Positions 34,713 to 39,293 of a stretch of 64,000 nucleotides of DNA are shown piece after piece. The notes beneath the pieces are model-generated. The model searched no databases. It had not been told where the DNA came from and saw only the letters and a list, made by a program, of their open reading frames with translations. This stretch comes from Escherichia coli. Lineage in GTDB: Bacteria > Pseudomonadota > Gammaproteobacteria > Enterobacterales > Enterobacteriaceae. The position numbers and the translations under genes are program-made. Within the stretch, counting starts at the first letter, position 1. Every line of letters begins with the position of its first letter. The stretch lies in the NCBI RefSeq assembly GCF_003334335.1, contig NZ_QOWQ01000029.1; one strand, given 5' to 3'.

Positions 34713-37700
34713 ATGAACAGGACCAGTCCCTATTATTGTCGCCGCTCAGTACTTTCCTTATTGATATCTGCCTTGATATATGCCCCGCCCGGGATGGCTG
34801 CCTTCACTACTAATGTTATTGGTGTGGTAAACGATGAGACTGTAGATGGCAACCAAAAAGTGGATGAACGAGGTACAACAAATAACACTCATATTATCAA
34901 CCATGGCCAGCAGAATGTTCATGGCGGGGTATCTAATGGAAGTCTTATTGAATCTGGTGGATATCAAGATATAGGAAGTCATAACAATTTTGTGGGGCAG
35001 GCTAATAATACAACCATTAACGGTGGCAGACAGTCAATTCATGACGGGGGTATTTCCACAGGTACGACAATCGAGAGTGGCAATCAGGACGTTTATAAAG
35101 GGGGTATCAGCAATGGAACGACAATTAAGGGCGGTGCTTCACGCGTAGAGGGAGGGAGTGCGAAAGGAATACTCATTGATGGTGGTAGCCAGATAGTAAA
35201 AGTTCAAGGGCATGCTGATGGTACAACGATAAATAAGTCTGGCTCTCAGGACGTAGTACAAGGAAGTCTGGCAACGAACACAACCATAAATGGTGGTCGA
35301 CAGTATGTTGAACAGAGCACAGTAGAAACAACAACCATTAAAAATGGCGGTGAGCAAAGAGTATATGAGAGCCGTGCGCTGGACACGACGATTGAAGGCG
35401 GAACTCAGTCTCTGAATAGTAAGTCAACGGCAAAAAATACGCATATCTATTCTGGTGGCACGCAAATTGTTGATAACACCAGCACCTCGGATGTTATTGA
35501 AGTTTATTCTGGTGGCGTGCTTGATGTTAGTGGTGGTACGGCAACAAATGTTACCCAGCACGATGGTGCAATTTTAAAAACTAACACTAACGGTACGACG
35601 GTGAGCGGTACGAATAGTGAAGGTGCATTCTCCATCCACAATCACGTGGCAGACAATGTGTTGCTGGAAAACGGTGGTCATTTAGACATAAACGCATATG
35701 GTTCGGCAAACAAGACGATTATTAAAGATAAAGGAACAATGTCAGTTTTAACCAATGCTAAAGCTGATGCGACCCGAATAGATAATGGCGGGGTTATGGA
35801 TGTTGCAGGAAACGCGACAAATACCATAATTAATGGTGGCACACAGAATATTAATAATTATGGCATAGCCACAGGCACCAATATCAACAGCGGAACGCAA
35901 AATATCAAAAGCGGCGGGAAAGCTGACACAACAATTATATCCTCCGGGAGCCGGCAGGTTGTTGAGAAAGATGGTACGGCAATTGGCAGCAATATTAGCG
36001 CCGGAGGCTCGCTGATTGTCTATACCGGCGGTATTGCACATGGGGTTAACCAGGAGACGGGCAGTGCTTTAGTTGCCAACACGGGTGCAGGGACTGATAT
36101 CGAAGGATACAACAAGCTCTCTCACTTCACTATTACCGGAGGGGAGGCTAATTATGTTGTGCTGGAAAATACCGGCGAACTGACGGTAGTGGCTAAAACC
36201 TCGGCGAAAAATACTACCATTGATACTGGCGGTAAGCAGATTGTCCAGAAGGAGGCTAAAACAGATAGCACCAGACTTAATAATGGCGGCGTTCTGGAGG
36301 TTCAGGACGGTGGTGAGGCTAAGCATGTTGAGCAACAATCCGGCGGCGCATTAATTGCTTCCACGACCTCCGGAACACTTATCGAAGGAACCAACAGTTA
36401 TGGTGATGCTTTCTACATCAGGAATTCAGAAGCTAAAAATGTAGTGCTGGAAAACGCTGGCTCATTAACAGTCGTCACTGGTTCCCGCGCAGTTGACACG
36501 ATTATTAATGCCAACGGCAAAATGGATGTTTATGGAAAAGATGTTGGCACTGTACTCAATAGTGCTGGCACCCAAACAATATATGCCAGTGCCACTTCTG
36601 ATAAAGCAAATATCAAAGGTGGCAAGCAAACGGTATATGGTTTAGCCACTGAAGCAAATATCGAAAGTGGTGAACAAATTGTTGATGGTGGGTCAACAGA
36701 GAAAACACACATCAATGGTGGCACGCAAACCGTTCAGAATTATGGTAAGGCAATCAATACCGATATCGTCTCTGGCCTACAACAAATTATGGCAAACGGG
36801 ACAGCGGAAGGTTCCATTATTAATGGGGGTTCACAGGTAGTTAATGAGGGCGGTCTGGCTGAAAACTCGGTGCTTAATGACGGCGGCACACTCGATGTGC
36901 GGGAGAAAGGCAGCGCAACGGGGATACAGCAGAGTAGCCAGGGCGCTTTGGTTGCAACCACCAGGGCGACGCGGGTCACAGGAACACGCGCGGATGGCGT
37001 CGCGTTCAGCATCGAGCAGGGTGCGGCGAACAATATCCTGCTGGCAAATGGCGGCGTGTTAACCGTGGAGTCAGACACCTCTTCTGACAAAACACAGGTC
37101 AATATGGGCGGACGGGAGATCGTCAAAACAAAAGCCACTGCGACAGGCACGACGCTCACCGGCGGTGAACAAATTGTCGAGGGTGTGGCGAATGAGACAA
37201 CAATTAACGACGGCGGAATACAAACAGTTTCAGCTAACGGAGAGGCAATAAAAACAAAGATCAATGAAGGCGGTACGCTGACAGTCAACGATAATGGCAA
37301 AGCGACAGATATCGTCCAGAACAGCGGTGCCGCTCTCCAGACGAGCACGGCTAACGGTATTGAAATCAGCGGTACTCACCAGTACGGTACTTTTTCCATT
37401 TCCGGCAATTTAGCGACCAATATGTTGCTGGAAAATGGCGGTAATTTATTGGTATTAGCAGGTACCGAAGCTCGCGACTCCACGGTTGGCAAGGGTGGGG
37501 CAATGCAAAACCTGGGTCAGGACTCCGCCACAAAGGTTAACTCTGGCGGGCAATATACCCTTGGGCGGTCAAAAGATGAGTTTCAGGCTCTGGCCCGGGC
37601 AGAAGATCTCCAGGTCGCTGGCGGTACGGCAATCGTCTACGCAGGTACGCTGGCGGATGCATCGGTCAGTGGCGCGACAGGAAGCCTGTCGTTAATGACG

Positions 37701-39293
37701 CCACGGGATAATGTTACGCCAGTTAAACTCGAAGGGGCGGTCCGGATTACCGATAGCGCGACATTGACTCTGGGAAATGGCGTCGATACCACGCTTGCCG
37801 ACCTGACGGCTGCCAGCCGGGGCAGTGTCTGGCTTAACAGCAATAATTCCTGTGCAGGTACCAGCAACTGCGAATATAGAGTAAACAGTTTGCTACTCAA
37901 CGACGGTGATGTTTATTTGTCAGCACAAACAGCAGCGCCTGCCACAACTAACGGTATCTACAATACGCTGACAACCAATGAACTTTCCGGTAGCGGTAAT
38001 TTCTACCTGCATACCAACGTTGCAGGCTCCCGGGGCGATCAACTGGTCGTCAACAACAACGCCACTGGTAATTTTAAAATCTTTGTTCAGGATACCGGCG
38101 TCAGCCCACAGTCTGACGACGCGATGACGCTGGTGAAAACAGGGGGAGGGGATGCTTCGTTTACGCTGGGCAATACCGGCGGTTTCGTTGATCTTGGGAC
38201 CTATGAGTATGTCCTGAAAAGTGACGGCAACAGCAACTGGAACCTGACCAATGATGTCAAACCCAACCCGGACCCCATCCCAAATCCAAAGCCAGACCCA
38301 AAACCCGATCCAAAGCCAGACCCAAATCCAAAACCAGACCCTACTCCCGATCCAACGCCGACACCCGTTCCGGAGAAACGCATTACGCCTTCTACGGCAG
38401 CCGTACTCAATATGGCAGCAACATTACCGTTGGTATTTGATGCTGAGCTAAACAGTATTCGCGAGCGGTTGAACATAATGAAAGCGAGTCCACACAACAA
38501 TAATGTCTGGGGGGCGACGTATAACACCCGTAATAATGTCACCACCGATGCGGGTGCCGGGTTTGAGCAGACGCTGACCGGAATGACAGTGGGGATCGAC
38601 AGCCGTAATGATATTCCTGAAGGAATTACCACGCTAGGCGCTTTTATGGGCTATTCCCATTCACATATCGGTTTTGATCGCGGAGGACATGGCAGTGTGG
38701 GCAGTTATTCTCTGGGCGGCTATGCCAGTTGGGAACATGAAAGTGGTTTCTATCTGGACGGTGTCGTGAAGCTGAACCGTTTTAAAAGTAACGTAGCAGG
38801 TAAAATGAGCAGCGGTGGAGCCGCCAATGGCAGTTACCACAGCAACGGGCTGGGCGGTCACATTGAAACCGGGATGCGATTTACCGATGGTAACTGGAAC
38901 CTGACGCCGTATGCATCGTTAACGGGGTTCACCGCTGATAACCCCGAATATCATTTATCCAATGGCATGAAATCGAAATCAGTCGATACCCGCAGTATAT
39001 ATCGTGAACTGGGCGCAACGCTGAGTTACAACATGCGTCTGGGGAACGGTATGGAAGTTGAGCCGTGGCTGAAGGCGGCTGTGCGCAAAGAATTTGTCGA
39101 TGATAACCGGGTGAAAGTGAATAGTGACGGTAATTTCGTCAATTATTTGTCGGGCAGACGTGGAATATACCAGGCAGGTATTAAAGCCTCATTCAGCAGT
39201 ACGTTAAGCGGGCATCTTGGGGTGGGGTATAGCCATAGTGCCGGTGTGGAATCCCCGTGGAACGCGGTAGCTGGTGTGAACTGGTCGTTCTGA
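34713..39293 (+). CDS. ypjA: AIDA-I/Ag43-type autotransporter adhesin YpjA (1526 aa)
   Basis: ORF 34584..39293; start moved to MNRTSPYY; signal peptide, Gly/Thr-rich periodic beta-helix passenger, proline-rich linker, C-terminal beta-barrel ending in F. Confidence 0.88.
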   Translation: MNRTSPYYCRRSVLSLLISALIYAPPGMAAFTTNVIGVVNDETVDGNQKVDERGTTNNTHIINHGQQNVHGGVSNGSLIESGGYQDIGSHNNFVGQANNTTINGGRQSIHDGGISTGTTIESGNQDVYKGGISNGTTIKGGASRVEGGSAKGILIDGGSQIVKVQGHADGTTINKSGSQDVVQGSLATNTTINGGRQYVEQSTVETTTIKNGGEQRVYESRALDTTIEGGTQSLNSKSTAKNTHIYSGGTQIVDNTSTSDVIEVYSGGVLDVSGGTATNVTQHDGAILKTNTNGTTVSGTNSEGAFSIHNHVADNVLLENGGHLDINAYGSANKTIIKDKGTMSVLTNAKADATRIDNGGVMDVAGNATNTIINGGTQNINNYGIATGTNINSGTQNIKSGGKADTTIISSGSRQVVEKDGTAIGSNISAGGSLIVYTGGIAHGVNQETGSALVANTGAGTDIEGYNKLSHFTITGGEANYVVLENTGELTVVAKTSAKNTTIDTGGKQIVQKEAKTDSTRLNNGGVLEVQDGGEAKHVEQQSGGALIASTTSGTLIEGTNSYGDAFYIRNSEAKNVVLENAGSLTVVTGSRAVDTIINANGKMDVYGKDVGTVLNSAGTQTIYASATSDKANIKGGKQTVYGLATEANIESGEQIVDGGSTEKTHINGGTQTVQNYGKAINTDIVSGLQQIMANGTAEGSIINGGSQVVNEGGLAENSVLNDGGTLDVREKGSATGIQQSSQGALVATTRATRVTGTRADGVAFSIEQGAANNILLANGGVLTVESDTSSDKTQVNMGGREIVKTKATATGTTLTGGEQIVEGVANETTINDGGIQTVSANGEAIKTKINEGGTLTVNDNGKATDIVQNSGAALQTSTANGIEISGTHQYGTFSISGNLATNMLLENGGNLLVLAGTEARDSTVGKGGAMQNLGQDSATKVNSGGQYTLGRSKDEFQALARAEDLQVAGGTAIVYAGTLADASVSGATGSLSLMTPRDNVTPVKLEGAVRITDSATLTLGNGVDTTLADLTAASRGSVWLNSNNSCAGTSNCEYRVNSLLLNDGDVYLSAQTAAPATTNGIYNTLTTNELSGSGNFYLHTNVAGSRGDQLVVNNNATGNFKIFVQDTGVSPQSDDAMTLVKTGGGDASFTLGNTGGFVDLGTYEYVLKSDGNSNWNLTNDVKPNPDPIPNPKPDPKPDPKPDPNPKPDPTPDPTPTPVPEKRITPSTAAVLNMAATLPLVFDAELNSIRERLNIMKASPHNNNVWGATYNTRNNVTTDAGAGFEQTLTGMTVGIDSRNDIPEGITTLGAFMGYSHSHIGFDRGGHGSVGSYSLGGYASWEHESGFYLDGVVKLNRFKSNVAGKMSSGGAANGSYHSNGLGGHIETGMRFTDGNWNLTPYASLTGFTADNPEYHLSNGMKSKSVDTRSIYRELGATLSYNMRLGNGMEVEPWLKAAVRKEFVDDNRVKVNSDGNFVNYLSGRRGIYQAGIKASFSSTLSGHLGVGYSHSAGVESPWNAVAGVNWSF
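38259..38375 (+). repeat. Tandem proline-rich (PDPK/PNPK/PDPT) linker repeat inside ypjA
   Basis: KPNPDPIPNPKPDPKPDPKPDPNPKPDPTPDPTPTPVP encoded by near-identical CCAGACCCAAA units. Confidence 0.8.

Follow-up and report, generated by a model that had tools for sequence, protein, structure and literature searches.

Our study examined a stretch of 64,000 nucleotides (nt) from Escherichia coli (assembly GCF_003334335.1, contig NZ_QOWQ01000029.1), referred to here as the window, and within it the gene ypjA, known as ehaD in O157:H7, which lies on the plus strand at 34713..39293. The domain composition of its 1526 amino acid (aa) product makes it very probable that YpjA is a classical monomeric (type Va) autotransporter adhesin, which would follow the standard export pathway and hold a β-helix on the cell surface. 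Solved homologues exist for every part of the protein, and the Pfam domains AIDA, Pertactin and Autotransporter were found in canonical order, each of the profiles for which the initial annotation had proposed a search being present.

Identity of the gene

The frame containing ypjA is open on the plus strand over 34584..39293, or 1569 codons counted from a GTG, and translation from the ATG at 34713 yields 1526 aa plus a stop codon, beginning MNRTSPYYCRRSVLSLLISALIYAPPGMAAF and ending AVAGVNWSF, which includes the terminal GVNWSF given in the initial annotation. The GTG at 34584 was considered as a start and rejected, as the extension is without signal-peptide character and RefSeq begins the gene at the ATG. 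This ATG was also preferred because a Shine–Dalgarno motif (GAGG, 9 nt upstream) precedes it and because the signal peptide starts directly there. The RefSeq start was read from E. coli BR1220, whose sequence matches 28000..46000 of the window (18 kb) at 100 % identity and in which ypjA, at 6714..11294, corresponds to 34713..39293. The annotation of this identical DNA agrees with the gene name and length proposed earlier and gives the product as 'adhesin-like autotransporter YpjA/EhaD'. By the listing of open reading frames (ORFs) ypjA is, as had been claimed, the longest of the window, the next two encoding 861 and 714 aa.

Compared to ypjA of K-12 derivatives, the window allele has 99.9 % nucleotide identity and differs in three amino acids (K151N, S273R and Q509L). 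K-12 YpjA (b2647) and O157:H7 EhaD (~98 % nucleotide identity) are the same gene with the same neighbours on the ileY side, EhaD having 20 X-Pro dipeptide units in its linker compared to 19 in the window. The ssrA side differs, as K-12 carries CP4-57 between ypjA and ssrA, whereas the window has no prophage there. Near-identity to the reference gene and the shared chromosomal locus place the gene in the YpjA/EhaD orthologous group. Judged by its ORF, its translation, RefSeq and its identity to K-12, 34713..39293 is the already described and annotated E. coli gene ypjA.

Domain architecture of YpjA

A putative Sec signal peptide spans residues 1-29 (MNRTSPYYCRRSVLSLLISALIYAPPGMA|AF; 34713..34799, plus strand) and was read from the sequence, where the n-, h- and c-regions of the Sec signal peptide expected in a type Va protein can be followed: a basic n-region (R3, R10 and R11), a hydrophobic core and a G-M-A cleavage motif. 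A signal-peptide length of 29 aa has also been reported with SignalP 6.0 (PMC13101318).

The β-helix passenger occupies residues 46-985 (34848..37667, plus strand), an assignment that draws upon autocorrelation, a hidden Markov model (HMM), Pfam AIDA, TIGR04415 and solved homologues. Its rungs are 18-19 aa long, follow the pattern T-T-I-x-G-G-x-Q-x-V... and are set in blocks. Autocorrelation of residues 61-1000 (BLOSUM62) peaked at lag 18 (+0.07) and lag 19 (-0.04), compared to -0.61 +/- 0.07 for shuffled sequences, with harmonics at lags 35-37 and 54; a further, long-range peak lay at 199. The highly periodic passenger of the initial annotation is thus real, far beyond what shuffling produces, although the period is 18-19 aa rather than the 19-20 residues proposed. 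With an HMM iterated from eight seed rungs, residues 46 to 982 yielded 39 matches resembling rungs, most of them 16-20 residues apart. At ~18.6 residues per rung over residues 46-985, the passenger would contain about 50 rungs. The extent of residues 90-1100 originally given for the passenger also needs revision, as detectable rungs run from ~46 to 985 and residues 986-1182 form the junction and autochaperone.

The spacing of the rungs is interrupted by gaps of ~41-63 residues between successive rung starts (~279-320, 444-488, 537-583, 737-779 and 865-908), with a further gap at 920-970 ahead of the last detected rung. A second module of ~45-60 aa, present in five copies with the pattern Q.SGGAL...GT...G.F.I....A.N.LLENGG.L.V, breaks the run of rungs. 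The five best Pfam AIDA hits (298-360, 464-526, 558-619, 756-818 and 886-946) coincide with the five gaps, as do the DNA repeat families D2 and D4, and the passenger therefore appears as blocks of GGxQxV rungs punctuated by a longer module.

Homology places this passenger in the AIDA-I/Ag43 class of β-helices, as had been suggested. Pfam AIDA (PF16168) gave 13 significant matches over residues 64-946 and the NCBIfam 'strand-loop-strand' repeat TIGR04415 matched in seven stretches (E 8e-67). Solved homologues were two Ag43-family structures, 7ko9 (E 8e-34) and 7koh (E 5e-32), and TibA, 4q1q (E 2e-27), all of which match the N-terminal 330 residues of YpjA. Imperfect repeats of ~19 residues forming a β-helix are what characterizes an AIDA-I-type passenger, and the composition of residues 46-985 was rich in glycine (15.7 %), threonine (12.2 %), asparagine (8.9 %), alanine (8.4 %), serine (8.0 %) and glutamine (5.2 %).

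Following the passenger, a pertactin-like junction and autochaperone covers residues 1057-1180 (37881..38252, plus strand). Pfam Pertactin (PF03212) matched residues 1057-1179 over the full length of the model (E 6.7e-46), residues 414-534 of pertactin (1dab) align to YpjA 1057-1180 (E 2e-15) and the IgA1 protease structure 3h09 also aligns. The autochaperone of pertactin has been defined as D444-L556, and an EhaD autochaperone cluster has been catalogued (PMC5767081). The only two cysteines of mature YpjA, at residues 1047 and 1053 (C-AGTSN-C; 37851..37871), lie just before the autochaperone and could form a small disulphide loop.

A linker of 19 X-Pro dipeptides, (X-Pro)19, joins the autochaperone to the presumed pore helix. 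It spans residues 1183-1220 (KPNPDPIPNPKPDPKPDPKPDPNPKPDPTPDPTPTPVP; 38259..38372, plus strand), was recognized from the sequence and confirms the proline-rich linker placed at 38259..38375 in the initial annotation. An α-helix expected in the barrel pore was assigned by homology to approximately residues 1221-1258 (38373..38486, plus strand), its boundaries being approximate. YpjA from residue 1244 onward (AELNSIRERLNIMK) aligns with the N-terminal helix of the BrkA construct 3qq2, beginning at residue 2 of the construct and extending to the last residue of YpjA, and Vag8 (7akv) aligns from residue 1217.

The predicted outer-membrane β-barrel translocator (38487..39290, plus strand) ends in the aromatic β-signal ...VNWSF. 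It was identified by Pfam Autotransporter (PF03797; residues 1265-1504, E 1.1e-46), by NCBIfam TIGR01414 (residues 1083-1526, E 4.5e-98, 329 bits against a cut-off of 16) and by end-to-end barrel matches to BrkA 3qq2 (E 4e-24) and Vag8 (E 2e-25). When the helix and barrel were searched against solved chains with phmmer at E up to 10, BrkA and Vag8 were the only autotransporter barrels matched, the remainder being weak hits to complement C2. PF03797, TIGR01414 and the 3qq2 alignment all mark the barrel as type Va, and the same type is indicated by the helical linker, of which residues 1244-1258 lie on the 3qq2 helix, and by the C-terminal aromatic β-signal (NWSF, compared to YRYSF in BrkA). The C-terminal translocator proposed earlier would have been called into question by the lack of a β-domain, and PF03797 and TIGR01414 clearly detect one.

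Proposed export and comparison with known autotransporters

The architecture and orthology of YpjA were observed and a role in adhesion and biofilm formation is taken from the literature; upon these we infer the steps of secretion, the dimensions of the protein and the role of a stalk. The 29-residue signal peptide would direct YpjA through Sec. The last ~270 residues would insert into the outer membrane, assisted by the β-barrel assembly machinery, as a barrel of the BrkA/pertactin type with the preceding helix in its pore, and the passenger would be threaded outward C-terminus first. The pertactin-like autochaperone (1057-1180) would then fold first at the surface and template the stacking of the ~50 rungs, each of 18-19 residues, into a right-handed β-helix. 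With the usual β-helix rise of 4.8 Å per rung, standard geometry would give this helix a length of roughly 24 nm. The (X-Pro)19 tract probably forms an extended, polyproline-II-like stalk of no more than ~12 nm, estimated at ~3.1 Å per residue in that conformation, which would keep the helix off the membrane and the lipopolysaccharide. The surface-exposed β-helix would act as an adhesin and biofilm factor.

The initial annotation described the function of YpjA as poorly defined, which understates what has been published, namely the promotion of adhesion and biofilm formation upon expression. A part in initial adhesion and in biofilm formation was attributed to YfaL, YpjA and YcgV by Roux 2005, as cited in PMC3796261, and EhaD has been associated with biofilm formation in Shiga toxin-producing E. 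coli. YpjA has already been used as a surface-display scaffold. A 2022 review placed YpjA in autotransporter Group 4 with Ag43, AIDA-I and TibA and predicted a β-helix along its full length, while its mechanism and structure were still unpublished at that time.

Among characterized proteins, TibA of enterotoxigenic E. coli (ETEC) has the same order of parts as YpjA, with a passenger of 19-residue repeats, a junction, a proline-rich domain and a membrane domain, and the X-Pro tract of YpjA occupies the position of the TibA proline-rich domain. The two differ in that TibA has 989 aa compared to 1526, the passenger of YpjA being far longer, and in that TibA is encoded beside the heptosyltransferase TibC and is glycosylated, whereas no such gene adjoins ypjA. 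No heptosyltransferase of the Aah/TibC type was found among the annotated neighbours of ypjA, which comprise ssrA, the ypjCB pseudogene, a recombinase fragment and a 39-aa ORF, though YpjA could still be glycosylated in trans. Ag43 and AIDA-I share the β-helix repeat class of YpjA, and this class supplies the best-matching solved structures for the N-terminal passenger. However, the NCBIfam equivalog models for Ag43, AIDA-I and BafA match YpjA only far below their cut-offs, the signal peptide of Ag43 has 52 aa compared to 29 in YpjA, and Ag43 and AIDA-I have a distinct 'long-type' barrel (PMC3419190). The junction/autochaperone and translocator of YpjA are instead of the type found in Bordetella pertactin, BrkA and Vag8, although the passengers of those proteins are unrelated in repeat type and function.

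Pertactin also has polymorphic proline-containing repeat regions. YpjA probably works like an AIDA-type adhesin. It is nevertheless neither Ag43 nor AIDA-I, as the equivalog cut-offs are not reached, no heptosyltransferase adjoins the gene, its signal peptide has few residues and its barrel resembles that of BrkA/Vag8.

YpjA may alternatively be a self-associating autotransporter, in which β-helices would bind head to tail between cells and cause auto-aggregation, with no binding of host or abiotic surfaces. We regard this as possible though doubtful. The match of the N-terminal 330 residues to 7ko9/7koh (E 1e-32 to 1e-34) and to TibA (E 2e-27) agrees with it, as does the class of 19-residue repeat, which is common to self-associating autotransporters, and the 2022 phylogeny, which has YpjA in Group 4, suggests a possible new member of the class. 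The same features that separate YpjA from Ag43 and AIDA-I (the equivalog scores, the BrkA/Vag8-like barrel and the lack of an adjacent heptosyltransferase gene) argue against it. Furthermore, the 2022 review calls the mechanism unknown, and PMC3796261 lists YpjA among 'other' adhesins, apart from the self-associating autotransporters.

Length of the X-Pro linker

The initial annotation had described the linker as encoded by near-identical short DNA units that could vary in length by slippage. The units proved to be 62-87 % alike: Tandem Repeats Finder reported periods of 6, 12, 18 and 42 with matches of 68-87 %, the six 42-nt registers are 62-79 % alike and no exact repeat exceeds 19 nt, a length reached at an offset of 24 nt.

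Linker length was surveyed with a 421-nt query spanning the linker, which had matches in 2525 of the 5426 complete E. coli genomes, and 60 records were sampled in even steps down the ranking. The segment was 421 nt long in 30 of these, 415 nt in 20, 427 nt in eight and 541 nt in one, the remaining record being partial. All 30 sampled records with at least 99.8 % identity to the window had the 421-nt length, and segments of 415 or 427 nt belonged to diverged ypjA alleles. Alleles with 18 X-Pro units were found in the O68:H12 strain 97.3 and in MS6198, which lack a unit at different positions, while O145, O157:H7 and CREC-2 have 20; the alleles of O157:H7 F8952 and MS6198 were confirmed to lie at the ssrA locus. 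The linker is thus polymorphic by one unit either way, a pattern that implies at least two independent 6-nt events.

Checking the linker across E. coli, as had been suggested, therefore gave a mixed answer. Length does vary between lineages, over 18, 19 and 20 units, although by only one unit from the 19 of the window, and it was constant in all 30 sampled close relatives. An interrupted repeat of constant length in the sampled close relatives points to slow polymorphism and away from a slippage hot spot, and the synonymous and amino-acid interruptions appear to stabilize the ypjA tract.

A more dynamic interpretation would treat the (X-Pro)n tract of ypjA as a contingency locus, with frequent slippage within a clone and rapid variation of stalk or epitope. 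The 18-, 19- and 20-unit alleles, which stem from at least two independent 6-nt indels at different positions, agree with this, as does a paralogue at another locus (described below) that has 23-41 units and that differs in length (33, 39 and 41 units) among pig ETEC strains with no mismatches in 307 nt of flanking sequence. Slippage-prone contingency repeats have pure units and differ in length among near-identical strains. The window repeat is instead interrupted, with a longest exact repeat of 19 nt and units 62-87 % alike, and the 30 near-identical records share its length, so that the ypjA tract shows neither property. Every length change is also in frame, which means that no on/off switching would result. 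It is highly improbable that ypjA itself is such a locus, and a slowly changing linker remains the preferred description.

A paralogue at the ycgH locus

The single 541-nt form in the survey led to the discovery of genes that carry the RefSeq label 'ypjA/EhaD' and measure only 3.35-3.45 kb, their linker segments ranging from 445 to 553 nt in 6-nt steps. One example lies at 2839..6279 of NZ_CP122676.1, between ymgJ and minE, and six further such loci were found; this interval is the ycgH locus of the K-12 map. Their (Asn-Pro)n alleles were considered as ypjA with an expanded linker, which was rejected since the ymgJ-minE context marks them as a paralogue.

The paralogue has the same architecture and linker position as ypjA, yet differs in its locus, in its length of 1146 aa when intact, with two passenger segments missing compared to ypjA, and in its linker of 23-41 units. 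It is 87 % identical to the window at 34328-35071 and 35715-36307, intervals that take in the 385 nt ahead of the gene and portions of the passenger, and 93.5-95 % identical at 36873-39303. The closer relationship of the 3' 2.4 kb than of the 5' parts suggests gene conversion or a later exchange of the half that encodes the autochaperone, linker and barrel.

The linker of the paralogue is almost pure (Asn-Pro)n, encoded by runs of AATCCA and of AACCCAAATCCG, with 23-41 X-Pro units in total. Three pig ETEC strains have 33, 39 and 41 units, their flanking 307 nt having 0 mismatches. Unless assembly errors mimic it, this tract is to be read as a case of true repeat-number instability, and among the two genes it is only the paralogue that has the hallmarks of a slippage-prone contingency repeat. 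As its units range from 23 to 41, this position of the linker tolerates large length changes.

Considered together, the two linkers raise the question of whether the X-Pro tract is a length-tunable stalk, adjusted by hexanucleotide slippage, from which lineages select the length that suits their O-antigen or capsule. The interrupted 18-20 units of ypjA may then be 'frozen', and the pure (Asn-Pro)n of the paralogue, at 23-41 units, actively varying. The length variation itself was observed; selection and the connection to surface glycans are conjecture, and we consider this proposal rather unlikely as a whole.

In most E. coli genomes the paralogue locus is reduced to a 345-nt 3' remnant beside minE, ~95 % identical to the end of ypjA (for example NZ_CP166080.1, 6001..6345). 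Matches to this remnant explain why 5327 genomes 'match' ypjA, compared to the 2441 that have at least 80 % of the gene. As one RefSeq name covers two loci, surveys of the presence, absence or length of 'ypjA' that disregard the locus mix two genes.

Conservation and decay of ypjA

Several observations weigh against YpjA as a working adhesin of the species. At least 80 % of ypjA was present in 2441 of 5426 complete E. coli genomes (45 %), leaving 55 % without most of the gene. Some copies carry IS1414 or IS600 insertions, strain EC11 has a 1310-nt frameshifting deletion (37499-38808) and strain EC291 has a 5' truncation at 36029 associated with the insertion sequence IS1, which removed the region from glaH through that position of ypjA. 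Interrupted, truncated and deleted forms, alongside absence from many genomes, indicate that ypjA is dispensable. A scan of the 900 nt upstream found no σ70-like promoter on the plus strand, the scan overall being at chance level. With regard to function, the scores of YpjA under the Ag43 and AIDA-I equivalog models were 350 and 266 bits, compared to the 1200 required, and the function of those proteins is therefore not simply transferable to YpjA.

In its strongest form, this evidence would make ypjA a cryptic, decaying gene, a relic of a horizontally acquired islet at ssrA that is unexpressed in nature and is being lost. In addition to the absence or reduction below 80 % in 55 % of complete genomes, the insertions by IS1414 and IS600, the IS1-associated truncation, the frameshifting deletion and the lack of an above-chance promoter match upstream, such a view could draw on the pseudogene state of the neighbouring ypjCB, recombinase fragment and alpha-amylase gene, on the AT-rich flank (33-38 % G+C) and on the reduction of the ycgH-locus paralogue to a 345-nt remnant in most genomes. 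However, the 4.6-kb ORF is intact in several divergent lineages. Comparison of the window allele with those of O157 and MS6198 by the Nei-Gojobori method gave a synonymous divergence (dS) of 0.054 and 0.110 and a ratio of non-synonymous to synonymous divergence (dN/dS) of 0.21 and 0.24, respectively. By region, dN/dS was highest for the rungs (~0.3) and lower for the junction (0.09-0.17) and for the helix and barrel (0.13-0.23), so that the autochaperone and barrel are below 0.25. A dN/dS of ~0.2 indicates purifying selection on intact alleles, which would not be anticipated in a pseudogene, and phenotypes upon expression of ypjA have been published, which also speaks against decay. We consider it unlikely that ypjA is merely a decaying relic; a dispensable adhesin gene under purifying selection where intact fits these data better.

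Genomic context

Upstream of ypjA, the order is an alpha-amylase pseudogene, a tRNA, the ypjCB pseudogene, a 168-nt recombinase fragment and the 39-aa ORF, and the synteny ileY - ypjCB - recombinase fragment - ypjA - ssrA is common to the window, O157:H7 and MS6198. The tRNA (31602..31677, plus strand) was called Met(CAT) by ARAGORN and tRNA-Ile by RefSeq on identical DNA; it is the lysidine-modified CAU isoleucine tRNA, ileY. Between 28.5 and 34 kb the G+C content is 33-38 %, and within ypjA it climbs from 44 % to 52 %. Most of 28500..34300 consists of decayed genes, including an alpha-amylase-family pseudogene and ypjCB, each with an internal stop, and the recombinase fragment lies at ~34138..34305. 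An Rfam search over 31000..40500 returned only the tmRNA and one tRNA, and a search of the literature for regulation of ypjA by H-NS yielded nothing of use.

The 39-aa 'hypothetical protein' ORF annotated by RefSeq at 34529..34648 (plus strand) ends 64 nt 5' of ypjA, and a copy also precedes the paralogue. The possibility that it encodes a leader peptide or a regulator was rejected, as all five nucleotide differences between the copies are non-synonymous, including a change of the start from ATG to GTG; this segment probably belongs to a 5' leader or promoter region that was duplicated, and is unlikely to be a gene.

Downstream, a 9-bp GC-rich hairpin begins 12 nt past the stop (39305..39326, plus strand) and is a candidate transcription terminator by RNA folding (-16.6 kcal/mol, z = -3.3 compared to shuffles), flanked by an A-run and a short T-run. 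A simple terminator scan did not call it because of the short T-run. The ssrA gene (39454..39816, minus strand) has its 3' end 160 nt from the ypjA stop (spacer 39294..39453), which places ypjA at the junction of the islet and ssrA, as the initial annotation had it. K-12 is collinear with the window to 39476, 23 nt into ssrA, and continues with CP4-57 genes, while O157:H7 departs at 39459, where it has a different integrase-bearing element. The ssrA integration site of the window strain is thus unoccupied.

Conclusions

In summary, the gene, its class and its phenotype in adhesion and biofilm formation are already in the literature and in RefSeq, and their recovery here is of little discovery value. 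What our study adds is a precise domain map of YpjA, including a second type of module between the rungs, and a species-wide answer on its linker, which has 18, 19 or 20 units and is constant in the sampled close relatives of the window allele. The idea of slippage is weakly true for ypjA and appears strongly true for its paralogue. Finally, the RefSeq name is to be treated with caution, as the ycgH-locus paralogue, with its hypervariable (Asn-Pro)n linker, shares the ypjA/EhaD label.

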